Of a stretch of DNA of 64,000 nucleotides, positions 32,553 to 50,014 are shown in pieces; within the stretch, counting starts at the first letter, position 1; every line of letters starts with the position of its first letter. The notes under the pieces were generated by a model. That model had not been told where the DNA came from and searched no databases. It saw only the letters and a program-made list of their open reading frames with translations. A program made the position numbers and the translations under genes. Source of the stretch: Lachnospiraceae bacterium (GTDB taxonomy: Bacteria > Bacillota > Clostridia > Lachnospirales > Lachnospiraceae); contig WRLH01000017.1 in the NCBI GenBank assembly GCA_009777715.1, positions 2,191 through 66,190 on the forward strand. The letters run 5' to 3'.

Positions 32553-33773
32553 TTACTCCCCCAGCACCTTAAGGACAAGCTCCGCGATTTTCTGATGCCC
32601 CAGCGGATTCGGGTGAATGATGTCAAAGCTTAAATTCATCTTAGCAAGGTCAAGATAATAATTCATCAGCTCGCTTAAAGCTTCCATGTCAGCAAAGATT
32701 AAGTCAACGTCAGCGATCAAATAACCATAATTTTGCTCTGTAAAATTTTTTTGCTCTGTAAAATTTTTTTGCTCTGTAAAATTTTTTTGCTCTGTAAAAT
32801 TTTTTTGCTCTGCAAAATGATGCCCTGCAAAAATAATTTCATTAATTGCCTGTGTGTATGCCCCGGCTTGCCCGGCCAGATCAAGCTCTAACCCTAGCAC
32901 CGCTTCGGGAATTGGGTTGTAAAGCGTGTTGACAACGAGGGTTGCGCTGGGGGCATTCTCCTTAAGCCATGCGATAATTTCTGAAAACTCGGCCGCAAAA
33001 TCAGCGATTCCCTCTTCCATCTCGGCGGTCAATTCTTCGGGCAAAGGGCCTGCTAAAACCGCCAGCGGATTATTGGCGTTAAGCTCGTTCATGCGGGCAA
33101 AAATTTCCATTGAATCACCAAAAATTAAGGTTGCCCTTTGCAAAAATTCCCCGATTCTAAGTAAGTCAGACAAAGAAAAATTCTCCGATATGCCTTGAAG
33201 TTCAGCATTCAGCCCCTCAAATTCCCCGGCCACGCCCATGGCGTCAATCGCAATCGTGCCAACATCGGCAATCATGTCCGTGATGGCCTGGAAATCCGGA
33301 AGATAACTTATCATGGGCTTAAGGATATTGTTTCCGCCGATATTAAGGGAAATAATCCGCGCATTATTAATGGCATTAAGTTCATCTGCGTTCAAGCTAG
33401 AAAGCTGTTCCAGAAGCATTCCGGTTGTTAGCCCGGTTGCGCTAAAATTCTCGTAACGGTTCACGTCGCCTAATTCACTAAGCCGCTCAAAGACCAAATC
33501 CGGGTATCGCTCTTCTAAGGAAACGCCGTACCCGGCCGGGATTGAATCACCCAGCGCGATAAAAAAAAGCGGCTCGGGCTCTGGCTCTGGTTCTGGCTCT
33601 ACCTGCGCTTCCTCAAGGGTCAAAAAATCAAACGCACCGCTTCCCTCTTGCTGGCCCAGATTTAAGTTTTGCCCCTCATTATTTTTCTTAAGCAGCACGG
33701 CAATAATAACACCTGTTATTAAAAGGCACAAGATGAGGAATAAGATGATGACTTGATAAGTTGTTTTTTTCAT
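32553..33773 (-). CDS. Membrane-anchored SGNH/GDSL-family hydrolase
   Basis: 406 aa. Has an N-terminal TM helix, block I FIALGDSIPAGYG, block III GGNN and a C-terminal HPNPLGH. It contains an internal (EQKNFT)n repeat. Confidence 0.75.
   Translation of the reverse strand: MKKTTYQVIILFLILCLLITGVIIAVLLKKNNEGQNLNLGQQEGSGAFDFLTLEEAQVEPEPEPEPEPLFFIALGDSIPAGYGVSLEERYPDLVFERLSELGDVNRYENFSATGLTTGMLLEQLSSLNADELNAINNARIISLNIGGNNILKPMISYLPDFQAITDMIADVGTIAIDAMGVAGEFEGLNAELQGISENFSLSDLLRIGEFLQRATLIFGDSMEIFARMNELNANNPLAVLAGPLPEELTAEMEEGIADFAAEFSEIIAWLKENAPSATLVVNTLYNPIPEAVLGLELDLAGQAGAYTQAINEIIFAGHHFAEQKNFTEQKNFTEQKNFTEQKNFTEQNYGYLIADVDLIFADMEALSELMNYYLDLAKMNLSFDIIHPNPLGHQKIAELVLKVLGE
32733..32818 (-). 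repeat. In-frame 18-bp tandem repeat x4.7 (TTGCTCTGTAAAATTTTT) inside the SGNH hydrolase gene
   Basis: Units are at 32733, 32751, 32769 and 32787, with a partial unit at 32805. It encodes FTEQKNFTEQKNFTEQKNFTEQKNFTEQN. Confidence 0.9.
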
Positions 33774-35584: not shown

Positions 35585-35608
35585 GGTTATTCTCCTATGA
35601 AGTTTATA

Positions 35609-35721
35609 GATTGCGGGTCAAGCCCGCAATGACGTAAAATGGGGTCATTCCGCAATGACGTAAAAGGGGGTCATTCCGCAATGACGTAAAAGGGGGTCAT
35701 TGCGGCCTCCGAGCCGCAATC
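35609..35721. repeat. REP cluster: REP(+) 35609-35633, two collapsed copies GTCATTCCGCAATGAC (35644-35659, 35670-35685) within a 26-bp tandem unit, REP(-) 35696-35721
   Basis: Read directly from the sequence. The last REP overlaps the stop codon of the 674-aa gene. Confidence 0.9.
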
Positions 35722-37721
35722 TCCTCAATCTCCCATAAATAAGCGGCCGACACATACGCGGTCGGTATACTGCTAGTATAATTAATCGCTGCCCAGCCAT
35801 TGCTTATCCCGGTCACCCTGACGATGTCCCCGGCGCGTAAAGTGCCGACAACCCTGCCATTCATGCCCGGCGCGTTCCGGACAAACAAGCGCGAAGCCGG
35901 GCTTATGTTAACAGCATATGCCGTCACCTGACCAAGGCTTACTTCTGTTTCCAAAGGCCTGACAGGTCCGCTAAGATGGTTAAGGTACATGACTGCCAGC
36001 CATGTCCCGGTATGGGCAAGCACCCACTCGCCATCAGGGCTAAATTCGATTATCTCAACAACCGTCCCCCTTGCCAATCTGCCGACCAGCGGGAAATGAG
36101 TTCCCGGCCCGCTTCTTTCATTTAAAAAATTCGCATTGACAGTATATAAAGACTTGGCTGGCGTTGGTGGCTCTGGCTTTTTACTCACTTCCTGCGTAAC
36201 TATTATATTTGCCACGTTTGACCGATACCGCACCGCTCCGCCAATCAAACTGCCCGATCCGCGGAAACCGTTTGTCCAGCTCTCTATCACGCCGTGATTC
36301 CTGACCGTGCCGCCATTATAAAGTGTTACTCCGTTGGGGATGTTAAGGACCGAAGTCCCCGGTATATTAAGCGTATAACCCTCCGCAATGATCAAATTTT
36401 CACTTAGCGTCACATTGCCATAAACCGTTGCCTTATCATCTTCAAACAAGATTCCCCGTGAACCGGGGGCGGCAATTAATGGGGAAAATATATCAAATGA
36501 AGAAAGATCAGAAAGTACCGCTGATGACGCATATATCATCAGGTTGTCTTTTATGATCAGGCTTCCTGCTGTCACAATGCCGCCCGTTTGATCACTGCCT
36601 GCTCCGCCTGTGATCTGCCCCACCGGGCCGTTTCCGGAGAATGTAATAATGCTTGCAGCTCCACCACTTGTAACAATCCCTCTTTCGCCGCCGCTAATTG
36701 CCCCTGTCGTACCCGAAATAGTGATGTTCCGGCCGGTAATTCCGCTCGATTCGGTTCCGCTAACCGACCAGGCTTCGCAAAAATTGACAACACCCCCCCC
36801 CGCCAATGCCCAAATTCCATTGCCACCGCCGGAAATGTTTCCGATCGTGCCGCCAATTGTGACGTTCATGGCCAAAATGCCGTTAATTGTAGCGGAAATG
36901 CTTTCTACTTCCCCGCCAATGGTGATATTGCCGTTATTAGCCCAAATGCCATGGGCAGGAGGGCCTAAGTCGAAAATGGTAATGCCGCTTATCGCCCCGG
37001 TTGATCCTAAGATGGTGACATTACCAAGATAGGCTTCAATTGCACTCGCTATCCCCGAAATATTCCCCGTCCTGCCCTCAATGGTAACGCTTTGATTGGC
37101 TAAAATTCCGTTTCTATCCGTCCCGGTAATATTGCCAACGTCTCCGGAGATAATAATATTGCCGGCCGCCGACCTAATGCCAGTATTACCGCTAATAGCC
37201 AAAACCGTGCCGGAGATTATGATATCGTTAACCGCGTAAATACCGGTGCCGCCTGTTGCGCCTGTTGCTGAAATACTGCCGATGCTTCCATCGATTGTCA
37301 CATTCCCAAAAGCCTCAAGTCCGCTCATGGATAATTTTGACTCAATAACAATATCCTCACCTTGGCCGCGGATAATGGCGTCTTCATACAGGACTAGCGC
37401 AGGATAATTAACCTCGCTGGTAATCTTCGTGCCCGGGGAAAGGGTAATGTCTTTGGCGTGCGTAACTACGACCGGGCGGCCGCCACTATCGCCGGCAAGG
37501 AGAATTGCGTCCGGGGTAGCTATCATGATGATATTTCCCCCGGCACCAGAATCTCCGTGGATAAAAAAGCCTTCGCCAACATAACCGTCCGGCAAAGCCG
37601 CCAGTGCCGTCAGGTCAAACACAGTGGGCATGGGTGCCGGACTGGCGTATGCCGCTTTTGGGATTAGTAAGGCAAACGCTAGGGCTAGCAATGCCAATAA
37701 TGGGTAAAATCGTTTCTTCAT
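35697..37721 (-). CDS. Secreted beta-helix-repeat protein with two C-terminal SH3b domains (paralogue P1)
   Basis: 674 aa. Has a signal peptide (...AAYA/SPAP) and roughly 20-residue periodic G.I.I.G..G.I.G...GI repeats. A PEPPTPAK linker is followed by two SH3b-like modules (YTVNANFLNERSGPG...; VNISPASRLFVRNAPGMNG...). Confidence 0.7.
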   Translation of the reverse strand: MKKRFYPLLALLALAFALLIPKAAYASPAPMPTVFDLTALAALPDGYVGEGFFIHGDSGAGGNIIMIATPDAILLAGDSGGRPVVVTHAKDITLSPGTKITSEVNYPALVLYEDAIIRGQGEDIVIESKLSMSGLEAFGNVTIDGSIGSISATGATGGTGIYAVNDIIISGTVLAISGNTGIRSAAGNIIISGDVGNITGTDRNGILANQSVTIEGRTGNISGIASAIEAYLGNVTILGSTGAISGITIFDLGPPAHGIWANNGNITIGGEVESISATINGILAMNVTIGGTIGNISGGGNGIWALAGGGVVNFCEAWSVSGTESSGITGRNITISGTTGAISGGERGIVTSGGAASIITFSGNGPVGQITGGAGSDQTGGIVTAGSLIIKDNLMIYASSAVLSDLSSFDIFSPLIAAPGSRGILFEDDKATVYGNVTLSENLIIAEGYTLNIPGTSVLNIPNGVTLYNGGTVRNHGVIESWTNGFRGSGSLIGGAVRYRSNVANIIVTQEVSKKPEPPTPAKSLYTVNANFLNERSGPGTHFPLVGRLARGTVVEIIEFSPDGEWVLAHTGTWLAVMYLNHLSGPVRPLETEVSLGQVTAYAVNISPASRLFVRNAPGMNGRVVGTLRAGDIVRVTGISNGWAAINYTSSIPTAYVSAAYLWEIEEIAARRPQ

Positions 37722-37742
37722 AAAATCTCCTATGGGTTTATA

Positions 37743-37820
37743 GATTGCGGGTCAAGCCCGCAATGACGTAAAAGGGTCAAGCACGTAAAATAAGGTCATT
37801 GCGGCCTCCGAGCCGCAATC
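37743..37820. repeat. REP pair: REP(+) 37743-37767 and REP(-) 37795-37820, between P1 and P2
   Basis: Same arrangement and flanks (TCTCCTATG.GTTTATAGATTGCGGG) as the cluster at 35592-35721. Confidence 0.9.
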
Positions 37821-37827
37821 TTGAAAT

Positions 37828-40158
37828 CTAATTCTGCCGCAAATACTGCGCCGACACATAAGCGGTCGGTATGCCGCTGGTATAATTAATCGTCGCCCAG
37901 CCATTGCTTAACCCGGTCACCCTGACAATGTCCCCGGCGCGTAAAGTGCCGACTATCCGTCCGTTCATGCCCGGCGCGTTCCGGACAAACAGGCGCGAGG
38001 CCGGGCTTATATTAACGGCATATGCCATTACGCGGCCTGGGCTTGCTTCTGTTTCTAATGGCCTGACAGGGCCGCTAAGATGGTTAAGGTACATTAATGA
38101 CAGCCACGTCCCGGTATGGGCAAGCACCCAATCGCCATCAGGGCTAAATTCGATTATCTCTACAACCGTCCCCCTTGCCAATCTGCCGACTAGTGGGAAA
38201 TGAGTCCCCGGCCCGCTTCTTTCATTTAAAAAAGTAGCATTGACTGTATATAGAGACTTGGCTGGCGTTGGTGGATCTGGCTGTTCAGCCACTTCTGCTT
38301 GGGCTGCTGTATTTGGCACATTTGACCGATAACGCACTGGTGTGCCAATCAAAGTGCCGCTTCCACCAAAACCGCCGATCCGGCTTTCGATCACGCCATG
38401 ATTAATAATCGTCCCATTATTCGTTAATGTAATCCAGTTGGGAATCGTTAAAACGCTTCCTTGCGGTATGGTCAGCGTCTGGTATTCCCCAATCGTTAGG
38501 CTGTGCTTTAGCGTCACATTGCCGTAGACTGTGCATTCGTTATGGCTAAGCAAGATCCCTTGTGAACCAGGGGCCGGAAAGCTAGGGACTTCGCCGCTTA
38601 TTGAAGAGTCCCATGTCCAAACTGACGACGCATAAACAACGCGGCTGTCTTTTAGCACGAGGTCTCCGTACACGCTATAAATGCCGCCATCCCCCCCCCC
38701 GATCTGCCCGGTCGTGCCGTTTCCGGAAATGATGACATCGCCAGAACGTACGGCAATGCCTTTGCCGTCAGTTCCGCCATTTATCGCGCCGGTTGTCCCA
38801 GAGATAAGGACCCCGCCACTGTCTGAATTAATGCCGCCCAGGCCGCCATAAATGCTCCCCGTCGTCCCGGAAATAGTGACTCCAAGAGTTGCAACAAGGC
38901 CTCCACCGGAATCTCCGCCGCTAATCGCGCCGGTAGTCCCGGAGATTGTAATATCCCCCGCTCCTGCGCGGATGCCGTTAATTGTTCCTTGTATTCTCTC
39001 TGTCCTGCCAGCGATGGTGACATCTCCTGATTGTGTAATAATTCCATTAAAGGCACCGTAAATGTTCCCGGTCTGGCCCAGGATGGTGATATTGCCGTTA
39101 TTAGCTATAATGCCGCTCCCGCTGGGGCCCATGCCGCCAATATCGCCGAACGTCCCGGTTAGCGTAACGCCATTTACTGCGCCGATGGCGTGATTTCCAT
39201 GGCCGTAGATGTTAACGTCGCTGCCATCACCCCTTACAACTGCTTCGTGGTTAAGCCTTAGGGCCGGTTCAGTCGTCGAATCGCTCATAATCTTTGTCCC
39301 GGCCGCCAAGGTTATGTCTGTCGCATAAGTAATGACGACCGAGCGGCCGCCGCTATCGCCGGTCAGGATAATCGGCACGTTGTTTTCGGTAATGATAATG
39401 TTATTAAGGCTAATCATCCAGCTTGGGCCGGCAGCATTGTCAGGCGCAGCTGACAGTTCATCAAGGTCAAAAGTCATCGGGGGAGCGGCTGTCCATGTCG
39501 CCGTATACCACCGATGGCCAAAGGATCCAACCGGGATATGGACGCTCATCGTTGGTTCTGAAAGCCCTGTCCCCGTCCAGCCGGCAAAGGTAAAGTTTTG
39601 CTTGGTCGGGTTATTTAAGGTAATCGACTGATGATCCATAAAGCTTCCATAAATCGAAAACTGGACTGGGTTAGGGGTTAATGGGTTGACTGTCCCGCCG
39701 TCAAGGTCATAGAATATATCGTAAAGCACAGCACCCCACTCCGCTTGGACCGATATGTCGGAAGTAACAACGGTGTCAGCATCAAACGGCTCGATGCCTG
39801 TACCCGGATTATATAACCAGCCGTGGAAATAAAAACCGTCTCGCTCCGGGTCAGCCGGAAACCTCGTCCCTACTGTCTCGCCGTCAGCTACCGAGATGAC
39901 GATATTACCCGGATTAGGGGTGTAACCGTGGAAAAAAGTGACCGTGTGAGTGCCGGAGGCCCAGACGTTAAGCGTAAATGCCAGCATTAGCGTTAGCGTC
40001 AGAGCCAGTGTCAGCACCAGCCTCACCAGCACTGCACCAGCGTTAGCGTTAGCACTGGCGTTAGGGCCTGCGTTAGCACTGGCGTTAGCCCCTGCGTTAG
40101 CACTGGCGTTAGGGCTAAAGATTTTAGGATTTGGGGGGAAATTTGCTTTTGGTTTCAT
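37828..40158 (-). CDS. Secreted protein: low-complexity N-terminus, two Listeria-Bacteroides-type repeats, beta-helix repeats, two C-terminal SH3b domains (paralogue P2)
   Basis: 776 aa. HTVTFF...DGFYFHGW... and YDIFYDLDGG...FTFAGWTG resemble Flg_new-type repeats. The passenger and C-terminal modules are homologous to P1 and P3. Confidence 0.7.
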   Translation of the reverse strand: MKPKANFPPNPKIFSPNASANAGANASANAGPNASANANAGAVLVRLVLTLALTLTLMLAFTLNVWASGTHTVTFFHGYTPNPGNIVISVADGETVGTRFPADPERDGFYFHGWLYNPGTGIEPFDADTVVTSDISVQAEWGAVLYDIFYDLDGGTVNPLTPNPVQFSIYGSFMDHQSITLNNPTKQNFTFAGWTGTGLSEPTMSVHIPVGSFGHRWYTATWTAAPPMTFDLDELSAAPDNAAGPSWMISLNNIIITENNVPIILTGDSGGRSVVITYATDITLAAGTKIMSDSTTEPALRLNHEAVVRGDGSDVNIYGHGNHAIGAVNGVTLTGTFGDIGGMGPSGSGIIANNGNITILGQTGNIYGAFNGIITQSGDVTIAGRTERIQGTINGIRAGAGDITISGTTGAISGGDSGGGLVATLGVTISGTTGSIYGGLGGINSDSGGVLISGTTGAINGGTDGKGIAVRSGDVIISGNGTTGQIGGGDGGIYSVYGDLVLKDSRVVYASSVWTWDSSISGEVPSFPAPGSQGILLSHNECTVYGNVTLKHSLTIGEYQTLTIPQGSVLTIPNWITLTNNGTIINHGVIESRIGGFGGSGTLIGTPVRYRSNVPNTAAQAEVAEQPDPPTPAKSLYTVNATFLNERSGPGTHFPLVGRLARGTVVEIIEFSPDGDWVLAHTGTWLSLMYLNHLSGPVRPLETEASPGRVMAYAVNISPASRLFVRNAPGMNGRIVGTLRAGDIVRVTGLSNGWATINYTSGIPTAYVSAQYLRQN

Positions 40159-40275
40159 TTTTCTCCTTTTTTATATGTTTGGCAAAATAAAGGCTTTCAA
40201 CTTAAGCATTTATCTGCTATACTATTAATGATACCACAATCTCCCCTCATCAGCAAACCAAATCAAGGAGCAATT

Positions 40276-40752
40276 ATGAAAAATATCAAAGACAAAGGCA
40301 CAATTTTAATCGGCTTACTCGAAAAATACTCAAAATTCTTCGAAGTGGCAATTGCATTTTTGCTGCTGGCAGTCATCACCATCAAGCTCGTTGACGTTTT
40401 CCTTGTCCTAATCGATGTGGACATCGCGATTATGAACATGGAGTTTGAAAGCGTCCTCACTTTGGTCTTTAACTTGGTCATCGGCATTGAGTTCACCAAA
40501 ATGCTGATCAAACATACACCCGAAACCGTCCTTGACGTCCTTTTATTCGTCATCGCCCGGCAGATGGTCGTCCACGGCGAGGGCAACTTCAATATCCTGC
40601 TTGGCGTTATCGCTATTATCGGCATTTTTGCCACCAAAAAATACCTCGTTGACGCGAAAAAATACCGTGATGATGAACTCGTGCTTGAGGAAGCTTCTTT
40701 AGCCCCGCATGAAACGCTTGAGGGGGAGGGTGGCGCAAAGGATGGTAAATAA
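40276..40752 (+). CDS. PsiE-like (phosphate-starvation-inducible E family) membrane protein
   Basis: ATG 40276 (MKNIKDKG) lies 5 nt after AAGGAGC. Four hydrophobic helices with IGIEFTKMLIKH...LLFVIARQMVV resemble PsiE. The track start at 40228 is unlikely. Confidence 0.55.
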   Translation: MKNIKDKGTILIGLLEKYSKFFEVAIAFLLLAVITIKLVDVFLVLIDVDIAIMNMEFESVLTLVFNLVIGIEFTKMLIKHTPETVLDVLLFVIARQMVVHGEGNFNILLGVIAIIGIFATKKYLVDAKKYRDDELVLEEASLAPHETLEGEGGAKDGK

Positions 40753-42306
40753 TTATTTTTCTATTATTTTCCAGGACCCGGTTTTATTAGACCCAATTCT
40801 TAATAGAATGCCATCCTGCTTCAATGCTTTTGTCTCACGCTCAATTGTTCTTGAGGACAAACCTGTTGCTTCTGCCAGTTGCTTCTTTGACATACTGGGG
40901 TTTTTCTCCAGCAGACCGATAATTAACTTGTGCCGATTTATACCGCCATTTATACCGCCATTTATACCGCCATTTATACCGCCATTTATACCGCCATTTA
41001 TACCGCCATTTATACCGCCATTTATATCATCATCTATTTCCTTACTGACATTAAACGCCTCATGTGCATAAATCGTTGCTATGAAATAATGACGGTCTTC
41101 ATCTGTTTCAAACTCCGGAGTCGGTGAACCGTTAATTTTTAAAGCTCGCAAAATCTTTGTAACGCCTGTTGATTTCTTTTCTGATAAATCTATTTCCTTA
41201 AAAAATTCACCTATGCGCCGATTGCGGTAACGTCTTGAAACAGCAAGTCCATTACTAAACTTTACCATATCAATGTGCTTCTCCGGGCCGGGATGATTGA
41301 TGACCATGATACGATTTAAGTAAATGCGAATTTCGACCGGCTCGTAAATACTATAGGATTTATGAAAAACTGCATTTACCAAAACTTCTTCCAATGCGTC
41401 ATATGGATAATTGAAAAATCGGTCTGCTTCAGCACGGTCACGATGCTTTACTACTTTTTCTTCGATTACGTTTGTCTTAATATACGAAAGAGCGTCGCGT
41501 ACCTGCTTATGTATCGGCCCTTTGAATATCTTTTCAACAAAATCATCAGATCCTTCGGCTTCTGGCGAGTTAAACCGTATCAGTTCAATTTGTGAGCATG
41601 GATGGAATTTTTCTGGCTTGTCCGAAAACATAAGTAAGCCAATGTTTCGGATATCGTATCCTGTATCGGTTACATTCGCTACTTCAAGGGCCGTAAGAAT
41701 GTCGCCTAGAGGCCTCTTGTCAATTTCACTGGCAAGTGAGCTGTTGCTCTCAACTAGATAATCCTCAAGATAAGCTCGGCGAATATCAGTGATTTTCGCT
41801 TCACGATTGACACGGTCATCTAATGGCACTGAAGTAAATTTCATAAAAAGTTCGTTAAGATCATCTCGTCTGGCAATAGTTTTTACTGATGACGGCTTAA
41901 TCCAAAACACTTTATTTGATTTGGTTTTTGCATAAATATCTTCGGGAGCTGAATATGGGCCGGCATCGCCACCTGAACACCAAAGATATAATAAGCATTT
42001 TTCCTGATAACGTATTATCTCAGATTTCGGAATATAGCGTGGTTCAATGAAATTGCAAAACCTAAATAACTCTTGCTGGATTTTATCTAATTCATTTTCA
42101 TCAACTCCGATGGGTGGTAAAATAGGGCGGCCATTCTTCTCTTCTATGCCAATGACGACATAACCGCCATTCGTATTCGAAAAATCATTAGCATATGCAC
42201 AAATGGTGGTAATAATCTCAGATGGATTCCAGCCACGTTTGTATTCCACGCGGTCATTTTCGACTATGCGGCCTTCTAATAGGGTTTCTAATTTTAGGGG
42301 AATCAT
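40753..42306 (-). CDS. AlbA_2 (Schlafen-like) / HATPase_c_4 / C-terminal winged-HTH protein (putative ATP-binding transcriptional regulator)
   Basis: The N-terminus LLEGRIVENDRVEYKRGWNP is the AlbA_2 hallmark, and the central VLVNAVFHKSY...INHPG matches HATPase_c_4. The C-terminal LLEKNPSMSKKQLAEATGLSSRTIERETKAL is an HTH. ATG 42306 lies 4 nt after the P3 stop, with AAGGTG upstream. Confidence 0.75.
   Translation of the reverse strand: MIPLKLETLLEGRIVENDRVEYKRGWNPSEIITTICAYANDFSNTNGGYVVIGIEEKNGRPILPPIGVDENELDKIQQELFRFCNFIEPRYIPKSEIIRYQEKCLLYLWCSGGDAGPYSAPEDIYAKTKSNKVFWIKPSSVKTIARRDDLNELFMKFTSVPLDDRVNREAKITDIRRAYLEDYLVESNSSLASEIDKRPLGDILTALEVANVTDTGYDIRNIGLLMFSDKPEKFHPCSQIELIRFNSPEAEGSDDFVEKIFKGPIHKQVRDALSYIKTNVIEEKVVKHRDRAEADRFFNYPYDALEEVLVNAVFHKSYSIYEPVEIRIYLNRIMVINHPGPEKHIDMVKFSNGLAVSRRYRNRRIGEFFKEIDLSEKKSTGVTKILRALKINGSPTPEFETDEDRHYFIATIYAHEAFNVSKEIDDDINGGINGGINGGINGGINGGINGGINGGINRHKLIIGLLEKNPSMSKKQLAEATGLSSRTIERETKALKQDGILLRIGSNKTGSWKIIEK
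40931..41026 (-). repeat. In-frame 12-bp tandem repeat x7 (+1 degenerate) CCGCCATTTATA encoding (GGIN)7
   Basis: Seven perfect units at 40943-41026, preceded by TGCCGATTTATA. It sits in the linker before the C-terminal HTH. Confidence 0.92.
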
Positions 42307-42310
42307 ATTG

Positions 42311-44794
42311 TCACCTTTGGTCAATCTCCTGCAAATACCGCGCCGCCACATACGCGGTCGGTATACCACTAGTATAATTAATCGCCGCCCAGCCATTGCT
42401 TAATCCGGTCACCCTGACGATGTCCCCGGCGCGTAAAGTGCCGACTATCCGCCCATTCATGCCCGGCGCGTTCCGGACAAACAGGCGCGAGGCCGGGCTT
42501 ATATTAACAGCATATGCCGTCACCCGCTCTTGGCTTGCTTCTGTTTCTAAAGGCCGGACCGGCCCGCTAAGATGGTTAAGGTAATTAACTGACAGCCACG
42601 TTCCGGTATGGGCAAGCACCCACTCGCCATCAGGGCTAAACTCAATTATCTCAACAACCGTCCCTCTTGCCAATCTGCCGACTAGTGGGAAACCAGTCCC
42701 CGGTCCGCTTCTTTCATTTAAATAAGTAGCATTCACAGTATAGAAAGATTTCGCGGGGGCAGGCTCTGGCTTTTCTGTCACACTCGCTGGCGGTACGCTT
42801 TGGGGCGGCGTATTCGACCGATACCGCACCGCTCCGCCGACTAAAACACCGCTTCCCCTAACGCCATCTACCCGGCTGTCAATCGTGCCATGGTTAAGAA
42901 TCGTCCCGCTGTTATTAAGCGTCCCGTTATTCGTAAGGATAATGCTTTGTGGAATCGTAAGGCTATTGCCGCTTGGCACAGACAAAGACTGGTGGCGTTG
43001 AAGAACCAAATTGCGCCTTAATGTGACATCGCCGTAAACCCTGCCGCTTGGGAAATCTTTTCCCCCGGTGAATAATATGCCCTGTGAATTATGGGTGGGA
43101 TTAAGGGGGACTTGATTAAAACCATCAGATGTAGATACGCCTGTCGCGTAAACGACACTATTGTTTGCGATTGTAAAGCTGTCGGCCAGAATGGCGGTCG
43201 GGATATAATGACCTGTGTATTCTAATGACGTTCCGGAGATTTGCCCCACCGTGCCGGAAATATATATATTTTCGCCCGCTTGCAGGCATATGCCAAGGCC
43301 AACATCGATATTGCCGACTGATCCGTCAATTTCAATTGATATAGAGCCATAAGGCGCATAGATAGCATTTGCGAAAGAATCAAAGTCGGAAGCTTTAATA
43401 TTACCCACCGAGCCAGAAATGATGATATCAGAGATAATGGAGATAATGGCTGGGTTGCCAATAATATTGCCGACCGTCCCATTTATATCAACCGTCCCAA
43501 CTCCTGAAATGGCTGAATTGACAGCATTTATTCCGCCAATCCGGCCAGATATTGAAATAATGTCAAATTCTCGGTTAGAATTTTGTTGTATTCCAACGCT
43601 CGCGGAAACATAATCTATATTTCCGTTTATTATTATACCCACATTTGCATAAATGCCAACTGTCCCTTTAATTAACGAGATATTGCCATCTTGGCCAATA
43701 ACAGCATTATCACACCGGATGGCAGTATGGGCTTCAATTTTATTTATCACCCCATCGATAATAACATTGCCATTTGCATGAATCCCATTGCCATAGGAAA
43801 TACCGAGCATAGAATCAACGACATCTCCGCCCCCTATAAAGCCAATCCGGGCAGTATCGGTAATCCTTGCGTTCCCCCCAGCCCGTATTCCTTCCCCGGC
43901 CGCCAACCCCTCTAAGGCCTCTATCCCGCCAATCGTGGCTGTGATGGTAATATTATCACCCAAGATGGCAACACTATTGCCAGATTGCCCTATGCTTCCG
44001 GCGTTAATGTTGCCGAATTCACCGGAAAGCGTCACATCGCCAGCGGCAAAAATGCCATGGCTGAATCCATTTATCCAAATCTCGCTGCCCTCGCCATGGA
44101 TTGTTGCACCATCTGGAACTACAAGAGCCATCCCGGCGCCCTCATTGCGCATAATCTTTGTATTATCCAAAATGGTGATGTCCAAGGACTCTTGAATAAC
44201 GACCGAGCCCATCCAATAACCACCTTTGAGGACAACAGACGAAGTGCCAAAGACGGTGATAGTATTATTAGCATAATCAACATTATAATCACTATGACCA
44301 GGAACTAGATTGTCAAAGTCAATGACAAGCGGGCATTCGCAAGGGTCTTGGCCGCAGTCAAGGCAAATTACTATGTTTACTATACATACGCAAGGGTCTT
44401 CCCCGCAGTCGGGGCATAATGCGAATAATGAGATGTCCCCGCTAAGCTCTGTAATTTTTGTGATTTCGAAGTCGGTGTTGCCGGATTGGTTGGGGTCTTC
44501 GTCTTCGATGGAATTGTTTTCCAAGGAAGTGGAATCTTCTTTGGGATTATTTTCGATGGAAAGGTTTTCCATGTTGTCAATGGAAAGGTTGTTGATGGAA
44601 AGATTTTCTTTGGAAAGATTTTCCATATTGTCTAAACTCATAAGTTCTGTTGCCGCCAAAGGGAACGGCTTTAGAATCAAGGCAAAGACCAGCAGTAAGG
44701 CGATTGCTTTGGCAAATGCCTTGGCATGGGCGGGTTTGGTTAATAAGCTTTCGCGAGTATGGAGTGCTGATTTCGTGAATATATTTCGTTTCAT
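42311..44794 (-). CDS. Secreted protein: NLS-rich repeats, twin C.DCG.DPC.C motifs, beta-helix repeats, two C-terminal SH3b domains (paralogue P3)
   Basis: ATG 44794 (MKRNIFTKSAL...) lies 7 nt after AAAGGA. The track start at 44890 is unlikely. The C-terminal ~150 aa are nearly identical to P1 and P2. Confidence 0.7.
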   Translation of the reverse strand: MKRNIFTKSALHTRESLLTKPAHAKAFAKAIALLLVFALILKPFPLAATELMSLDNMENLSKENLSINNLSIDNMENLSIENNPKEDSTSLENNSIEDEDPNQSGNTDFEITKITELSGDISLFALCPDCGEDPCVCIVNIVICLDCGQDPCECPLVIDFDNLVPGHSDYNVDYANNTITVFGTSSVVLKGGYWMGSVVIQESLDITILDNTKIMRNEGAGMALVVPDGATIHGEGSEIWINGFSHGIFAAGDVTLSGEFGNINAGSIGQSGNSVAILGDNITITATIGGIEALEGLAAGEGIRAGGNARITDTARIGFIGGGDVVDSMLGISYGNGIHANGNVIIDGVINKIEAHTAIRCDNAVIGQDGNISLIKGTVGIYANVGIIINGNIDYVSASVGIQQNSNREFDIISISGRIGGINAVNSAISGVGTVDINGTVGNIIGNPAIISIISDIIISGSVGNIKASDFDSFANAIYAPYGSISIEIDGSVGNIDVGLGICLQAGENIYISGTVGQISGTSLEYTGHYIPTAILADSFTIANNSVVYATGVSTSDGFNQVPLNPTHNSQGILFTGGKDFPSGRVYGDVTLRRNLVLQRHQSLSVPSGNSLTIPQSIILTNNGTLNNSGTILNHGTIDSRVDGVRGSGVLVGGAVRYRSNTPPQSVPPASVTEKPEPAPAKSFYTVNATYLNERSGPGTGFPLVGRLARGTVVEIIEFSPDGEWVLAHTGTWLSVNYLNHLSGPVRPLETEASQERVTAYAVNISPASRLFVRNAPGMNGRIVGTLRAGDIVRVTGLSNGWAAINYTSGIPTAYVAARYLQEIDQR

Positions 44795-44916
44795 GGGTGA
44801 TTCCTTTCTATATATCATATCCATAATTGGCGAGCCATCGTAAAGGTTAATTCTCATTGTTAGTTTAATATAATTTTGGCGGAAATGCAATAGCTTTTTT
44901 GTTGACTGGTGTGGTC

Positions 44917-44959
44917 AAAAAAATGACCCTGTTCCAAGACGGGAACAAGGGTAAAAAAA
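44917..44959 (-). terminator. Rho-independent terminator separating the Rpn gene from the P3 promoter region
   Basis: Coding strand: TTTTTTTACCCTTGTTCCC-GTCTT-GGAACAGGGTCATTTTTTT. Confidence 0.7.
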
Positions 44960-45005
44960 GCTGGGCGGAAGTATTGGCGAAAGATTACGATTATCAAACT
45001 TAAAC

Positions 45006-45068
45006 CCAAAAAACTAAAGTTTTTAACACTTTAGTTTTTTAGAAAGTGGAAATTTTAATCTTCACACT
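45006..45068. repeat. Terminator-like palindromic module, copy B (AAAAAACTAAAGTTTTT...AGTGGAAATTTTAATCTTCACACT)
   Basis: Homologous to 11445-11520 and 55942-55990. Its end supplies the last codons and the TGA of the Rpn gene. Confidence 0.8.
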
Positions 45069-46048
45069 AGCACTTCCTGATATGCAAGGATTTTTTCAAC
45101 GCTTTCCTTAGTAATCTTCGCTATTTTTGCTATTTCCTCAACCGGATAGCCAGCTTCATACATATTCAAGATAATTTCGGCTTTGCCTTTTACTACGCCC
45201 TTTTCTATGCCCTTTTCTATACCCTCTTCTATGCCTTCCATAAAAACCATTTCGCCTAATCCTGACATCTTCTTTACCTCCTGGCTTAGTGACTTGCTAT
45301 ATTTAACGTGGTTTTCCAATACTTTATATGATTTCTTCGTCCGCGGATAAAACAAGGCGTTCATAATCCGGATTATTTCTTCGGTATTGTCATCGTCCGG
45401 ATCACCCAGCCTGATTATGACCATCGTCATTAAATCATTGTCACCCGGTTGAGTCTCTATGTCCTTGCTGTTCCAAGTGTTAACTAGCTCATATTGGGAA
45501 ATTGTGTTGCGTAAATCTTTCGGCACATTTTCCCGGCAGATAAAGATATTATAGACTTTCGCCAAAACGGTGTAGTCAGTCTTTGCTGTCGGGGCCGCTA
45601 TTTGTGAGCCAATCATCCTTGACATATAGTATATGCCGCGCTTTTCGATCGGATATCCCGGCCTATAGTTTCCCTGTGCCTCTACATCAACGTAAATATA
45701 ACAAGCAACTTCCTCATTAGAAAGTTTCGGGTTAATGACCTTAAAATATACATCGAACCGCGACATCATTTCATTTAGTGCTTTAAATTCAGGATTCAGC
45801 CCCTCAATCCGGTTTTGGTTAGTCCTGCCCGGCGCAACTTCTGTCACATTGCTGATTTTATCAGCTTCTATGCAATCGGCAATTTCCTGATATGACATAT
45901 CCTTAAATTCTTTGGCGGTATGCTTAAGCAATATGGCAAGGAACTCTTTATTCGATAAAATCTCTTTGCTCGTGTCATCTAACTGCGGAGCTTTGTCGGT
46001 TATCTGTAGTGAACTTGCTGCTGCTTCGCTCATTTCAATTTTGCCCAA
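45062..46048 (-). CDS. Rpn-family recombination-promoting nuclease / putative transposase (PD-(D/E)XK)
   Basis: 328 aa. Core ..FDVYFKV...YIYVDVEAQGNY.., and a C-terminal EGIEEGIEKGIEKG...ILNMYEAGYPVEEIAKIAKITKESVEKIL tail typical of this family. Confidence 0.65.
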   Translation of the reverse strand: MGKIEMSEAAASSLQITDKAPQLDDTSKEILSNKEFLAILLKHTAKEFKDMSYQEIADCIEADKISNVTEVAPGRTNQNRIEGLNPEFKALNEMMSRFDVYFKVINPKLSNEEVACYIYVDVEAQGNYRPGYPIEKRGIYYMSRMIGSQIAAPTAKTDYTVLAKVYNIFICRENVPKDLRNTISQYELVNTWNSKDIETQPGDNDLMTMVIIRLGDPDDDNTEEIIRIMNALFYPRTKKSYKVLENHVKYSKSLSQEVKKMSGLGEMVFMEGIEEGIEKGIEKGVVKGKAEIILNMYEAGYPVEEIAKIAKITKESVEKILAYQEVLV

Positions 46049-46153
46049 TTTTCTGTCATTCTCCTATCCTCTGATTCCTGCCAACTTAATTATAACATAT
46101 TCGGGCTGACAGTTAAATAGTTTTTTACGCCCATCTTAATTGCTTGATTGCTC

Positions 46154-47059
46154 CTACAGCTCATACGGCGTTTGCTGGTAAACATAATAATTGACCCAGT
46201 TGCTGTAAAAATTAATGCTGTGTGAACGCCATTGCAAATGCGGCTTTTTCGCCATGTCATTGTCAGGGTAGTAATTAAGGGGCATTTTTATTGCCAAGCC
46301 TTTCCCAATATCGCGGACGTATTCATTATGAAGGGTCAGGCGGTCATATTCCGGGTGGCCGAACACAAAAATCTGCTTGCCTTCATCGGCTTCACACAGG
46401 AAAATGCCCGCTTCTTTTGATTTAGCCAGCACCTTAAGCCTGCCATTTTTATGAATTGCTTCTTCGTCGCTGGCGGTATGGCGGCTATGCGGAATCATGA
46501 AAACATCATCAAAGCCGCGGACAAGCGGTATTTTCCGGTTAATGATTGTATGTTCATAAACACCGAACAATTTTTCCGGCAGGGATTTTTTTCCAATGCC
46601 ATAATGATAATAAAGGGCGGCCTGGGCACCCCAGCAGATATGAAAGGTTGAGGTGACATTACGCTTTGACCATTCCATTATTTCACATAATTCTGCCCAA
46701 TAATCAACCTCTTCAAAGGGCAGATGTTCAATCGGGGCCCCGGTGATAATCAAGCCGTCAAATTTTTGCTGTTTTAAATTTTCAAAGTTATCATAAAACT
46801 TATTCAGGTGGCTGCTGTCCGTATTAAGGGAAACGTGGCTGTCGATTTTCATAAAAGTTACGTCTATTTGGAGCGGGGTATTGGATAATCCGCGCAGTAA
46901 TTGCAGTTCGGTGTCTTGTTTGATTGGCATCAAATTAAGGATGCAGATTTGCAGCGGGCGGATATCTTGCGATATTGCCCTTAGTTCGTCCATCACGAAG
47001 ATGTTTTCGTTTTCAAGGATTTCCTTGGCTGGTAATTGGCTTTGAATTTTGATTGGCAT
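46154..47059 (-). CDS. metA: Homoserine O-acyltransferase (MetA family)
   Basis: 301 aa. [23 protein letters not shown]..., [14 protein letters not shown] and CWGAQAA (catalytic Cys) are typical of MetA. Confidence 0.92.
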
Positions 47060-47122
47060 GGTTGCTCTCCGTTTTACTATGGTTTTTCGTTTGAAGTCAA
47101 ACTTACGAACCGAATTATCCCC

Positions 47123-49081
47123 CTACCCCAGATACTCCCCGGCAAATTCGTCCTCGGTCACCACCGGAATCCCCAATTCCTTGGCGGTCTTGTTCTTTGA
47201 CGAGTTCGAGGCATTGTCATTATTTATTAAGGCTTTGGTTTTTGAACTTACCGATCCGGTCACTTTTCCGCCCCGCTTTTCTATTTCTTCCTTTAGTTCA
47301 TGGCGGGTAAAATTATTAAGGCTTCCGGTAATGACAAAACTTAGGCCGTCAAGATTCCTGGCGGTGGTTTCAGTTTTCGCCGTTTCAATGTAAAGTTCGT
47401 TAAGGAGCTTGTCAAGCTCTTCGCTATTCTTTCCGGCCCGGAAATAATCATATAATGAAGCGGCAATCACTTCACCGATTCCCTCGATACCGCTAAGCTC
47501 TTCGATTGTCGCATTCCGAAGCCTTTCAATATCATCATCAAACTCACGGCATAACATTTTCGCGTTCGCCGCGCCGATGTTTAGGATGCCCAAGCCGTAA
47601 ATCACGCGGGGCAAGGTCGTCTTTCTGGCAATATCAATGCTTTTGATGAGATTTTGATAAGATTTTTCGCCGAAGCCCTCCATCGTGATGATATCCTGAC
47701 GGTAATTTTCCAAATGGAATAAATCAGCATAAGTGCGGATAAAGCCCTTGCCGATAAATTTTTCTAAAGTCGCTTCACTCATTCCGGCGATGTTTAGGGC
47801 GTTCCGGCTGACCAGCAAGGTAAATGATTTTATTTTTTTGACCCCGCAATCAGGGTTAAAGCAATAAAGGGATTTAACATCACTTACGCTATGGATTTTC
47901 GTTTCTTTTCCGCAAGCCGGGCATTTAGCCGGGACTATGACCGAGTCAGAGCAAGTCAGGTTTTCGGCAATTTGAGGAATAATCATATTTGCTTTATAAA
48001 CGCTGATCCGGTCGCCAATGCCAAGCTTTAGGTTCTTAAGGATGCTGATATTGTGGACTGATGCGCGGCTTATGGTCGTCCCCTCTAACTCAACCGGGGC
48101 AAAAATCGCAACCGGGTTAATAAGGCCTGTCCGGCTCGGGCTCCATTCAATTTCGAGCAGGGTTGTTTCGCGGATCTCATCTTCCCACTTAAATGCCATC
48201 GAATCGCGGGGGAATTTTGCGGTCGCGCCAAGGCTTTCACCATAAGCGATATCATCATAGCTAATCACCAGGCCATCAGAGGGGATATCACTACTCTTAA
48301 CCTTTTCCTCATATTGCCCGATTATTAAGTTAAGGTTATTTTCATCAACCAGGGTAAAATCAACAACTAAAAAACCTTGCGCTTTTAAAAATGACATCTG
48401 TTCTTTGCGGAAAGCAAACTCTTTTCCGGCCGCTTTGACAATGGCAAAGGCAAAAAACCTGACCATTCTGGCCGCGGTTACTTTATTATTGAGCTGCCTG
48501 ACTGAACCGCTTGAAAGATTGCGCGGATTTTTGTAAAGCTCTTCGGTTTCTGGAAGTGCTTCATTTATTTGGGTAAAATCGCTGTAGGTGATTACCGCTT
48601 CGCCCCTTAAAACCAATTCTTGCTTAAACGGGATGGTCAATGGCAAATCAAGAAAGGCCCGCGCATTGCCTGTCACCACCTCGCCGATTTCGCCGTTCCC
48701 TCTGGTGACAGCTTTTGCAAGTTTTCCGTCATTGTAGGTAAGGACAACCGTCAAACCGTCCAATTTCCATGATAAAATTCCTTGCTTGTCTTTAAGCCAA
48801 TCTTTAAGCTCTTCACGATTTTTGGTTTTGCCAAGGGAAAGCATCGGTTTTTCATGGCGTTCTTTGGGAAGCTCTAAAACGGCTTCATAACCTACATATT
48901 GTGTCGGGCTGTTTGACAAGCTAAAGCCTGTTTCTTTTTCAAGCAAGCTAAGCTCATCATATAATTTATCATATTCGTAATTGCTCATTATTTCCCGGTC
49001 TTCGGCGTAATAAGCCCGCGCTGCCGCTGATAAAGTTTCGGTCAGTTCTTTAATCCGGGCGATTGTGGGGGAGTTTTCCAT
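47123..49081 (-). CDS. ligA: NAD-dependent DNA ligase
   Basis: The adenylation motif is region WKLDG, with a Cys4 zinc finger (CPACG...C.NPDC), HhH and BRCT domains. ATG 49081 (MENSPTIARIKEL) is preceded by GAGAGG. The track start at 49108 is a TTG. Confidence 0.95.
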   Translation of the reverse strand: MENSPTIARIKELTETLSAAARAYYAEDREIMSNYEYDKLYDELSLLEKETGFSLSNSPTQYVGYEAVLELPKERHEKPMLSLGKTKNREELKDWLKDKQGILSWKLDGLTVVLTYNDGKLAKAVTRGNGEIGEVVTGNARAFLDLPLTIPFKQELVLRGEAVITYSDFTQINEALPETEELYKNPRNLSSGSVRQLNNKVTAARMVRFFAFAIVKAAGKEFAFRKEQMSFLKAQGFLVVDFTLVDENNLNLIIGQYEEKVKSSDIPSDGLVISYDDIAYGESLGATAKFPRDSMAFKWEDEIRETTLLEIEWSPSRTGLINPVAIFAPVELEGTTISRASVHNISILKNLKLGIGDRISVYKANMIIPQIAENLTCSDSVIVPAKCPACGKETKIHSVSDVKSLYCFNPDCGVKKIKSFTLLVSRNALNIAGMSEATLEKFIGKGFIRTYADLFHLENYRQDIITMEGFGEKSYQNLIKSIDIARKTTLPRVIYGLGILNIGAANAKMLCREFDDDIERLRNATIEELSGIEGIGEVIAASLYDYFRAGKNSEELDKLLNELYIETAKTETTARNLDGLSFVITGSLNNFTRHELKEEIEKRGGKVTGSVSSKTKALINNDNASNSSKNKTAKELGIPVVTEDEFAGEYLG

Positions 49082-49122
49082 CTGTACCTCTCTAAAGTGT
49101 TTATACAAGTACTTTCAAGGGG

Positions 49123-49204
49123 GATTGCGGCGCAGGGCCGCAATGACACAATGTTTACACAAGTACATTTCAAGGGAAATATGCGGCTTGGGGGCCGCAA
49201 TGAC
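49123..49204 (+). repeat. Two REP-like hairpins (49123-49147; degenerate 49179-49204) within a ~57-bp tandem duplication
   Basis: GTTTATACAAGTACTTTCAAGGGGGATTGCGGCGCAGGGCCGCAATGACACAA is followed by GTTTACACAAGTACATTTCAAGGGAAATATGCGGCTTGGGGGCCGCAATGACACAA. Confidence 0.85.
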
Positions 49205-50005: not shown

Positions 50006-50014
50006 GTTTTATAC

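Follow-up and report, generated by a model that had tools for sequence, protein, structure and literature searches.

Three genes in a 64,000-nucleotide stretch of a metagenome-assembled Lachnospiraceae genome (the whole stretch analysed, hereafter the window) share a 3' end that aligns base for base, and the remainder of each has diverged. This raises the question of whether the shared end has been kept alike by exchange of DNA between the genes or by selection on the protein, and of what the outward-facing parts of the products do. All three open reading frames (P1, P2, and P3) lie on the minus strand at the coordinates claimed in an earlier note on this DNA. They follow a common plan: a signal-peptide-like N-terminus, then Gly/Ile-rich repeats (here called the passenger), and a short Pro-rich linker leading to a pair of Pfam SH3_3 domains. 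Their parts are as follows.

35697..37721, minus strand: P1 gene, 674 aa, MCL2051695.1 (open reading frame, Pfam, accession)
37644..37721, minus strand: P1 signal-peptide-like N-terminus, aa 1-26, MKKRF...AAYA-S (by eye)
36213..37643, minus strand: P1 predicted beta-helix passenger, aa 27-503, with N-cap, 21-24-residue coils, and C-cap (AF2, alignments, periodicity)
35700..36212, minus strand: P1 homogenised 3' module, Pro-rich linker and two SH3_3 domains (Pfam, identity, blastn)
37828..40158, minus strand: P2 gene, 776 aa, MCL2051696.1 (open reading frame, Pfam, accession)
39958..40158, minus strand: P2 N-terminal region, (ANAG/S)n tract, then hydrophobic core ...VWA-S
39490..39951, minus strand: two P2 Listeria-Bacteroides (Flg_new) repeats (Pfam, TIGR02543)
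38317..39489, minus strand: P2 predicted beta-helix passenger, aa 224-614 (AF2, Foldseek)
37831..38316, minus strand: P2 homogenised 3' module, linker and two SH3_3 domains (Pfam, identity, blastn)
42311..44794, minus strand: P3 gene, 827 aa, MCL2051699.1 (open reading frame, Pfam, accession)
44342..44794, minus strand: P3 N-terminal region, signal-peptide-like aa 1-48, ENLS-type repeats, two CxDCGxDPCxC motifs
42809..44341, minus strand: P3 predicted beta-helix passenger, aa 152-662, GC3 0.444 (alignments, GC3)
42314..42808, minus strand: P3 homogenised 3' module, linker and two SH3_3 domains, GC3 0.539 (Pfam, identity, GC3)

The N-termini differ between the three proteins. Signal peptides had been claimed for all three proteins and, read by eye (n-region, hydrophobic core, and the ends AYA-S, VWA-S, and LAA-T), each N-terminus is recognisably signal-peptide-like. 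P1 has no additional module, its passenger beginning directly behind the signal peptide. P2 alone carries the two Listeria-Bacteroides-type repeats reported earlier (Flg_new, PF09479, 41.8-45.9 bits against a cut-off of 27, Pfam E 6e-12; TIGR02543, 40.8 bits against 20.95), and its (ANAG/S)n tract is a 12/24-nt tandem repeat at 40046-40115. In P3, where an independent ENA gene call concurs with the start ATG at 44794 (827 aa), we find the NLS-rich repeats as ENLS-type repeats, together with the twin Cys motifs at aa 127-137 and 144-154, which reach ~9 nt beyond 44342 into the passenger part; this N-terminal region has zero Pfam matches. The proposal that modules are shuffled at the N-terminal end is borne out by an Oscillospiraceae protein (P0010), in which the two Flg_new repeats and the passenger recur with a sortase-like anchor in place of SH3b.

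At the other end, SH3_3 (PF08239) is matched twice in each C-terminus, at 62.6, 65.7, and 67.6 bits against a cut-off of 27, and PDB matches include the SH3b structures 2kq8 and 2krs. The SH3b assignment made earlier therefore rests on sequence matches well above cut-off in all three proteins; in the full-length AF2 model the SH3b part is of low confidence (pLDDT <50).

The shared 3' block of P2 is 88.4% identical to that of P1 over 482 nt and 88.5% identical to that of P3 over 461 nt (blastn), and no further copy was found in the window. The estimate by eye that nine positions in ten are identical was thus right, at 88%; "near-identical" overstates a module with this identity and a dS of ~0.35. 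Nucleotide identity in 30-codon windows is not uniform along the genes: it is 33-63% in the passenger, 63-77% in the C-terminal cap, and 84-94% across the linker and SH3 domains, so that 3' homogenisation is visible as a step up at the linker. Synonymous divergence follows the same boundary, with a dS of 0.34-0.41 in the module versus 1.65-2.42 (saturated) in the passenger, where an alignment rich in repeats can inflate the value; the drop has a Fisher p of 1e-11 to 1e-13. Furthermore, the module is a mosaic. Among its 57 variable sites, the pattern in which P1 equals P2 accounts for 21 of 39 in the 5' two-thirds, outnumbering either other pattern, and falls to 1 of 18 across the last ~140 nt; none of 2000 permutations gave a maximum chi-square breakpoint as extreme (p<0.0005). 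Finally, the GC3 of P3 rises from 0.444 in the passenger to 0.539 in the module, where it agrees with P1 and P2, unlike P3's own passenger. Because of the dS drop, the mosaic module, and the GC3 discontinuity in P3, recombination between the paralogues explains the homogenised 3' anchor, as the earlier note had proposed, better than protein-level constraint alone. With 88% identity and a dS of ~0.35, the exchanges are not recent, and since the copies are 12% diverged, conversion must be old or infrequent.

The explanation that we favour, with moderate confidence, is that P1, P2, and P3 are old beta-helix paralogues held at the wall by SH3b domains, with a module homogenised by gene conversion and a passenger that probably binds. 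The products would be Sec-secreted and displayed on the cell surface. In each protein, a right-handed parallel beta-helix, capped at its ends, would be followed by a short Pro-rich linker and by two SH3b domains, the pair of which would hold the protein non-covalently on peptidoglycan or wall polymers. Homologous recombination would have moved the ~480-nt linker and SH3b module between the three genes at least twice, at a time when their beta-helix parts had long since diverged; all three products would thereby share one wall ligand and yet differ in their outward-facing parts. In other Firmicutes, the beta-helix family is fused to other anchors.

An unlikely alternative is that three beta-helix genes from unrelated lineages each gained the linker and SH3b cassette once and then drifted. 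This would suit the finding that the Flg_new repeats and passenger of P2 are about equally close to the Oscillospiraceae protein (47%) and to P1 (49-51%), as well as the many different anchors among relatives, because of which anchors have evidently been swapped in this family. It would also suit the module dS, which implies no recent exchange. However, to produce the mosaic inside the module, the graft would have to be followed by one or more additional exchanges, and the 63-77% shoulder of P1/P2 identity 5' of the linker suggests tracts of different lengths. A single early graft with one later exchange would fit the data nearly as well as repeated conversion. No related or sister-species locus was found among genome contigs (passenger and SH3 module queries) or metagenome contigs (SH3 module query). 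In a collection of 5.8 billion proteins, the SH3-module query missed even its own proteins and the full-length P1 query missed P3, so negatives from that search are uninformative.

Whatever the history of the anchor, the paralogues of the reading that we favour would present a beta-helix. The passenger repeats have a period of 21-24 residues. The AF2 model of the P2 passenger has a pLDDT of 95.8 and a pTM of 0.92 and consists entirely of short strands, and that of P1 is all-beta, with pLDDT >90 for aa 30-330. Foldseek matches in PDB (126) and BFVD (379) are nearly all beta-helices, including Cthe_2159, fucoidan and PL6 lyases, Ag43, tapirins, and tailspikes; none is significant at E≤0.001 (best E 0.09-0.16 in PDB and 0.012 in BFVD), and they have low TM-scores. 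Models and matches agree with the beta-helix suggested earlier, and the passengers of P1-P3 are predicted to be right-handed parallel beta-helices of the pectate-lyase-like superfamily. The passengers have no Pfam match at E≤10, and direct PDB sequence searches with them gave no match. They share a conserved N-cap (xDLxxL...GDSGGR / KGDGxxGGxGW) and C-cap (SQGILF...VYGNVTL...TLTIPxG). They are not passengers in the strict autotransporter sense: Pfam shows no translocator domain, SH3b domains form the C-terminus, and the host belongs to the Lachnospiraceae.

Outside this locus, the passenger family comprises 476 cluster representatives at E≤1e-3 among 1.84 billion proteins, without a Pfam model and thus uncovered by current domain libraries. 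Relatives carry SLH, sortase-like, dockerin, Cu_amine_oxidN1, or Por_Secre_tail (T9SS) anchors or tails, and in some cases Flg_new; among the members examined, the double-SH3b anchor was observed at P1-P3 only. Several relatives come from termite-gut metagenome-assembled genomes. Bridging members match PF14262 or Beta_helix_3. Two of them, P0018 and P0021, match PF14262 directly, and in P0018 the passenger profile (E 2.8e-34) and PF14262 (E 4e-7) cover overlapping residues. A profile of 14 family sequences matches 4peu (Cthe_2159) at E 9.8e-5, with a high compositional bias (17.4 of 24.7 bits). The passengers of P1-P3 themselves do not match PF14262 at E≤10. As part of the explanation that we favour, and held with the same moderate confidence, the family is rare and distantly related to Cthe_2159. 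A 1304-aa YDG-domain surface protein at 5369-9283 was considered as a fourth member and rejected, its HMM scores being negative.

Cthe_2159 of Clostridium thermocellum (4peu/4phb) belongs to PF14262, a family of carbohydrate-binding beta-helices in the pectate-lyase superfamily, and has a right-handed beta-helix of short Gly-rich coils like that predicted for P1-P3. It is the best or near-best Foldseek PDB match for the P1 and P2 models, at TM-scores of only 0.31-0.45; P1-P3 differ from it in having a distinct N-cap and C-cap and other anchors. Cthe_2159 is reportedly lyase-like and carbohydrate-binding, without reported activity, and its Pfam name and PDB title agree with the carbohydrate-binding description. 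Adhesive beta-solenoid domains with a distant relationship to Cthe_2159 have been published (PMC9210967).

Are the passengers then binding domains or enzymes? It is improbable, in our judgement, that P1-P3 are wall-anchored polysaccharide lyases, pectate-lyase-superfamily glycoside hydrolases, or tailspike-related depolymerases. Lyases, hydrolases, and tailspikes do make up many of the top Foldseek matches, and SH3b domains often stand beside hydrolases (NCBIfam EntFM/CwpFM-type partial matches). Against this, none of those Foldseek matches is significant, no Pfam lyase or glycoside hydrolase family is matched, no phage genes lie near the locus, and Cthe_2159, the closest solved relative, is the protein said to lack reported activity. 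Across 14 modules, invariance is confined to columns of G, I, L, P, and T and to one Asp, located in the N-cap; the helix body has zero conserved acidic or basic residues. Because that Asp is the sole charged residue invariant across the family, the "enzyme repertoire" of the earlier note is not supported, and binding is more likely than catalysis. The likeliest role of the beta-helix is to bind a polysaccharide or some other surface, such as plant fibre or other cells in an insect gut. The family could be relevant in lignocellulose-digesting guts, for adhering to plant fibre or to other cells.

A further alternative needs no DNA exchange: P1-P3 would be whole-gene duplicates whose SH3b end stayed alike through stronger purifying selection alone. 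SH3b domains are well conserved in general, and the module indeed has the smaller dN/dS (0.14-0.16, versus 0.34-0.36 for the passenger). However, dS in the module is also smaller, by a factor of 4-6 (Fisher p about 1e-11), the phylogenetic signal changes inside it, and the third-position GC of P3 shifts at its boundary. Protein-level constraint predicts none of these, which makes this alternative very unlikely. The same ratios bear on the earlier suggestion of diversifying evolution in the passenger, which did not hold up: a dN/dS of 0.34-0.36 with saturated dS gives no sign of positive selection.

Mis-assembly or consensus mixing is barely credible as the source of the repeated module: the source is a metagenome-assembled genome and the contig of a second assembly (ENA ERZ27257348) stops within the P1 passenger, but the module copies differ at 12% of positions, each in frame, the P2 and P3 modules of the second assembly are the same but for a single SNP, and the contig break falls in the passenger, outside the repeat. 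Over P3, P2, and the ~306 codons at the start of P1, that independent assembly agrees at 99.94% identity, and the locus is therefore not an assembly artefact; the P1 module lies outside its coverage. The SNP, in the P3 module, was considered as a conversion footprint and rejected as an ordinary SNP, because the same base occurs in all three copies in the window.

An anchor kept alike by recombination, with the remainder diverged, is in our view a real, if fairly ordinary, Gram-positive route to a surface-protein family. In the Cwp/CWB2 proteins of C. difficile, the pneumococcal choline-binding proteins, SLH proteins, and the GW proteins of Listeria such as InlB, one non-covalent wall module is shared by many paralogues with different exposed domains. 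Such modular Gram-positive wall-protein families are reviewed in PMC5817068. Relatives of the P1-P3 passenger make similar use of SLH, sortase, or Cu_amine_oxidN1 anchors. P1-P3 differ in their tandem SH3_3 anchor, and the DNA-level evidence of homogenisation is specific to this locus. Recombination-shaped clusters of genes for surface proteins with beta-solenoid and SH3b domains are known from Apilactobacillus (PMC12863079). The Giant1-5 genes of Apilactobacillus kunkeei resemble P1-P3 in being consecutive paralogues with extracellular products, an outward beta-solenoid, a shared C-terminal SH3b-like wall-binding domain, and a diversification attributed to recombination. The Giant proteins have 3,000-8,000 aa, long alpha-helical stalks, and an SRRP-like solenoid (PMC12863079), whereas P1-P3 have 674-827 aa, no stalk, and a Cthe_2159-like helix; the likeness noted is one of architecture. 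Tapirins of Caldicellulosiruptor (4wa0, 6n2b) and the binding region of L. reuteri SRRP are surface beta-helix adhesins for plant polysaccharides; the tapirin Foldseek matches are non-significant (E 0.4-2, rmsd >27 A), and SRRP (5NY0) is absent from the top 50 matches.

The P1-P3 locus leaves the understanding of Gram-positive surface display unchanged. It offers a clean, quantifiable case, here in an uncultivated gut Firmicute, of surface-protein paralogues in which the limit of a domain also serves as the limit of recombination. A more ambitious reading, which we consider possible and regard with some doubt, is that the passenger represents an undescribed beta-helix adhesion or carbohydrate-binding family of fibre-digesting gut Firmicutes carried on interchangeable anchors (SH3b, SLH, sortase, dockerin, and T9SS). 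The locus would then be a recombination-driven repertoire, whose direct SH3b repeats let the cell reshuffle, delete, and duplicate outward-facing modules.

The genes are interspersed with palindromic elements and with other genes.

35590..35722, minus strand: composite REP-like palindromic element 3' of P1, three copies of a 26-nt unit and two palindromes
37722..37827, minus strand: composite REP-like element between P2 and P1, terminator-like hairpin
40228..40752, plus strand: small membrane protein (context only)
40753..42306, minus strand: AlbA_2, HATPase_c_4, and wHTH gene between P2 and P3 (context only)
45062..46048, minus strand: Rpn-family / PDDEXK_2 nuclease-like gene (context only)

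The REP hairpins noted earlier at P1 and P2 are present, with a palindrome directly 3' of P2 and one inside the last codons of P1, where the last 11 codons of the module run into it; none lies 3' of P3. The element 3' of P1 folds at -59 kcal/mol, and the element between P2 and P1 is in parts 89-98% identical to it; folds of these elements are strong (z -6.7, for the element 3' of P1, and -4.7). One REP-like palindrome, ATTGCGGC-N6-GCCGCAAT, has 7 copies in the 64-kb window versus 0.6 expected, and a second palindrome type also has 7 copies, versus 0 expected. By copy number, short imperfect palindromy, and position at 3' gene ends, these dispersed, mostly intergenic palindromes are of REP type.

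Among the neighbouring genes named earlier, the "PsiE-like" one falls short of its family (PF06146, 11.7 bits against a cut-off of 23.9, E 0.29). The Rpn nuclease gene passes just above the cut-offs (TIGR01784, 52.2 bits against 52.1; PF12784, 29.7 against 27.4); a role for it in the module exchanges was considered and set aside, with nothing beyond adjacency to suggest one. No link of the AlbA_2, PsiE-like, or Rpn genes to P1-P3 was demonstrated. Foreign origin of P1 and P2, considered for their high GC, was rejected: their GC3 of 0.52-0.55 falls inside the 0.34-0.55 of the window, and their GC excess sits at second codon positions, reflecting richness in Gly, Ala, and Thr. Pfam confirms the identity of the AlbA_2 gene, whose likely ATG (42306) lies 4 nt from the stop of P3. 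Its GC3 of 0.344 is the lowest in the window, and it contains a perfect 12-nt tandem repeat of 7.6 copies.

Three neighboring paralogous genes encode proteins with a common architecture: a signal peptide, a capped beta-helix (the passenger, an autotransporter term used here for convenience only), a proline-rich linker, and two SH3b domains. The earlier note had proposed a three-paralog locus, and the three minus-strand open reading frames (ORFs) are present as it described:

35697-37721, minus strand: P1, ORF of 674 aa (NCBI MCL2051695.1)
37828-40158, minus strand: P2, ORF of 776 aa (NCBI MCL2051696.1)
40753-42306, minus strand: AlbA_2/HATPase_c_4/wHTH gene, containing a 12-nt tandem repeat
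42311-44794, minus strand: P3, ORF of 827 aa from ATG (NCBI MCL2051699.1)
44333-44416, within P3 (aa 127-154): pair of CxDCGxDPCxC motifs at a 17-residue spacing

The longest possible P3 ORF has a TTG start at 44890; the 827-aa form agrees with an independent ENA gene call. All three proteins are annotated by NCBI as 'MAG: SH3 domain-containing protein [Lachnospiraceae bacterium]'. The claimed tandem SH3b module is confirmed, with two SH3_3 domains at each C terminus (Pfam, 62.6-67.6 bits against a cut-off of 27 bits). The middle parts have no Pfam match, even at E<=10, and no PDB match by sequence search. Read directly from the sequence, the N termini resemble signal peptides of the Sec type (in P1, MKKRF...AAYA|S), with long n-regions preceding the hydrophobic core in P2 and P3. 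What had been described ahead of the passengers is also borne out: the P1 passenger begins directly after the signal peptide, with no extra module; two Listeria-Bacteroides (Flg_new) repeats occur in P2 only (Pfam, with which NCBIfam concurs); and P3 has ENLS-type repeats, previously termed NLS-rich, together with the two cysteine motifs. The motif pair stems from a 32-nt direct repeat (84% identical), has no Pfam match, and is found in none of the other 150 family members retrieved. Ahead of the beta-helix N-cap, it could fold into a small knot held by disulfides or metal.

The 3' module bears a signal of recombination. The 3' block of P2 is 88.4% identical to that of P1 over 482 nt and 88.5% identical to that of P3 over 461 nt (blastn), with no fourth copy in the 64-kb window. 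The module had been called near-identical; its similarity stands at ~88%, but the term is too strong for copies differing at 12% of positions. In 30-codon windows of the codon alignment, identity between paralogs is 33-63% in the passenger, 63-77% in the C-terminal cap, and 84-94% from the proline-rich linker to the stop. Nei-Gojobori estimates give a dS of 1.65-2.42 (saturated) and dN/dS of 0.34-0.36 for the passenger, 1.08-1.48 and 0.32-0.37 for the cap, and 0.34-0.41 and 0.14-0.16 for the linker and SH3 module; the contrast in synonymous differences is significant in all pairwise comparisons (Fisher P = 3e-11 to 1e-13). Both measures thus uphold the proposed 3' homogenization. Protein-level constraint cannot cut synonymous divergence four- to six-fold, and this reduction indicates that the common ancestor of the module is younger than that of the rest of the genes. 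The diversifying evolution suggested earlier is a different matter: with a passenger dN/dS of ~0.35 and saturated dS, positive selection is without support.

The module has 57 variable sites. The pattern in which P1 and P2 agree and P3 differs is the commonest in its 5' two-thirds (21 of 39 sites) and occurs at 1 of 18 sites in the last ~140 nt; in a max-chi-square breakpoint test, 0 of 2000 permutations were as extreme. This switch therefore requires two or more exchanges, and not all with one partner. Third-position GC in P3 jumps from 0.444 in the passenger to 0.539 in the module, within the range typical of P1 and P2 (0.51-0.56), which suggests a P1/P2-like donor. The exchanges are not recent, because the copies still differ at the 12% of positions noted.

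An assembly artifact is made very unlikely by a separate assembly (ENA ERZ27257348, contig k141_195608), which spans 36804-50158 at 99.94% identity with the same gene order and the same P2 and P3 modules; that contig stops inside the P1 passenger, and the P1 module lies outside its span. The eight SNPs comprise six in the Rpn-like gene adjoining P3, one in a REP spacer, and one in the P3 module, the last a plain SNP since the three window copies agree at that site. Over the 13.4 kb compared, the six fall in a 270-nt stretch inside this Rpn/PDDEXK_2 gene (45182-45452), a cluster that fits a multi-copy gene with paralog mixing or exchange.

The Flg_new repeats and passenger of P2 are 47% identical over 546 aa to a protein from an Oscillospiraceae MAG (P0010, MCL2014127.1), which has a second passenger module and a sortase-like tail in place of SH3b. 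Identity between P2 and P1 is about equal (49-51%). Thus, the passengers represent old lineages, and family members have swapped anchors. Once the three local genes had diverged, the SH3b cassette probably spread between them, followed by partial re-exchange.

The REP hairpins reported to flank P1 and P2 correspond to a composite REP-like element 3' of each gene, 89-98% identical in parts, which fills the interval between the stop codon and the ribosome-binding site of the next gene; the last 11 codons of P1 extend into the palindrome. This common element is a weak sign of a shared duplication unit, because these palindromes also occur at scattered sites elsewhere in the window. Two families, ATTGCGGC-N6-GCCGCAAT and ATTGCGGGTCAAGCCCGCAAT, are each present 7 times in the 64 kb (<1 expected); they often build composite arrays at the 3' ends of genes, and their predicted folding is strong (z -4.7 to -6.7):

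28792-28913: REP-like palindromes
35602-35722: REP-like palindrome array
37736-37821: REP-like palindrome array
9778, 10132, 49180, 50021, 55746, 57128, 57668: further REP-like palindromes

The beta-helix proposed for the passengers is upheld as a fold class, given structural matches and a repeat period of 21-24 residues. AlphaFold2 models P1 residues 30-330 as short strands throughout, with pLDDT >90 (three-paralog alignment), and the P2 passenger with a mean pLDDT of 95.8 and pTM of 0.92 (alignment of 14 family modules). A Foldseek search of the PDB with the P2 model returned 126 matches at E<=10, none significant (best E 0.16) and none a close solved relative. Virtually all are right-handed beta-helices, including fucoidan lyase FdlA, Cthe_2159 (probability 0.80, TMt 0.45), PL6 lyases, antigen 43, AlgE6, tapirins, and tailspikes. 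Cthe_2159 is the top match of the P1 model (E 0.09), and a BFVD search agrees with the PDB results (best E 0.012).

The passenger profile was run exhaustively as an HMM against 1.84 billion cluster representatives, of which 476 matched at E<=1e-3, 71 of these at <=1e-10 and 15 at <=1e-30. Judged by these sequence matches, the family is rare but real. Its modules share an N-cap (xDLDxL ... KGDGxxGGxGW, with GDSGGR instead in the P1/P2 subtype), a varying number of G-x-I coils, and a C-cap (VVYASS ... SQGILF ... VYGNVTL ... QTLTIPxGxxLTIPxGxTLxNxGTI), and occur in tandem, with a maximum of four in one protein. The C-terminal parts of relatives are SLH triplets, Cu_amine_oxidN1, dockerin, or Por_Secre_tail, or sortase-like signals that include a membrane-spanning segment and a charged tail; Flg_new, Big_2, YDG, and CBM_X2-like parts are also joined. 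By their predicted domains, all of these are extracellular-display contexts. Among the family sequences retrieved, the tandem SH3_3 anchor is confined to P1-P3. Three loci with relatives carry one family gene each, with no paralog cluster: two from the metagenome sample of the second assembly (ERZ27257348 k141_2122704 and k141_3888292) and one from a termite-gut Oscillospiraceae MAG (WRKL01000024.1).

Some members match Pfam Cthe_2159 (PF14262) or Beta_helix_3 directly, and in one (P0018) the passenger-profile and PF14262 matches overlap. A 14-sequence profile matches PDB 4peu (Cthe_2159) at E 9.8e-5, with high compositional bias. We read the passenger as remotely homologous to the Cthe_2159 group and outside PF14262. 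Across 14 modules, the sole invariant charged residue is an N-cap Asp, and helix-body conservation is limited to G, I, L, T, and P, which argues against a shared catalytic site and leaves the suggested enzyme repertoire without support.

P1-P3 would be exported through Sec, and their SH3b pair would hold them non-covalently to the wall, the three different beta-helices facing outward and binding polysaccharide or cell-surface ligands. The homogenized cassette might keep them matched to the same wall ligand, and its direct repeats, 2.1 and 4.5 kb apart, could serve as substrates for exchange, deletion, and duplication. The proteins are of a known type, surface proteins of Gram-positive bacteria that are modular and attach to the wall through a common anchor; their beta-helix domain family is still undescribed in domain libraries. 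Similar beta-solenoid adhesive domains, also distant relatives of Cthe_2159, have been described (PMC9210967), and the Apilactobacillus Giant1-5 cluster likewise combines a beta-solenoid with C-terminal SH3b-like domains, diversified by recombination (PMC12863079).

The P0010 gene lies on WRKL01000024.1 (GCA_009778115.1), inside the accession range of a higher-termite gut MAG set (WQRH-WRNX; PMC7024585). The ENA sample of the second assembly also yielded two family proteins (P0003 and P0009), and P1-P3, P0010, and P0155 (a member of the P0009 90%-identity cluster) share the MCL20 accession series. Together, these make a lignocellulose-digesting insect gut a plausible source.

The 3' end of P3 has no REP-like element; the P3 stop and the start ATG of the AlbA_2/HATPase_c_4/wHTH gene are separated by 4 nt. 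At 0.344, GC3 is lower in that gene than in any other of the window; the gene may therefore be foreign, and it may have been inserted later along with the small membrane-protein gene. The PsiE label formerly given to the latter is unsupported (E 0.29). A functional tie of P1-P3 to the AlbA_2 or Rpn genes is without support. The 12-nt repeat ATTTATACCGCC (40936-41026; 7.6 copies, 100% matches) encodes an in-frame (GING)n tract that joins the ATPase-like part to the winged helix; the length of the repeat could vary. Two other secreted or surface proteins contain in-frame repeats:

5369-9283, minus strand: YDG-domain surface protein of 1304 aa, with a signal peptide and three YDG domains
32553-33773, minus strand: GDSL-lipase-like secreted protein with (FTEQKN)x4-5 and (EP)x5 repeats

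The former, rejected as a passenger relative by negative HMM scores, has a C-terminal membrane span and (SNASDAT)n and (GSTSN)n repeats. Taken with the (ANAG/S)n tract of P2, these repeats suggest a genome rich in short tandem repeats within coding sequence.
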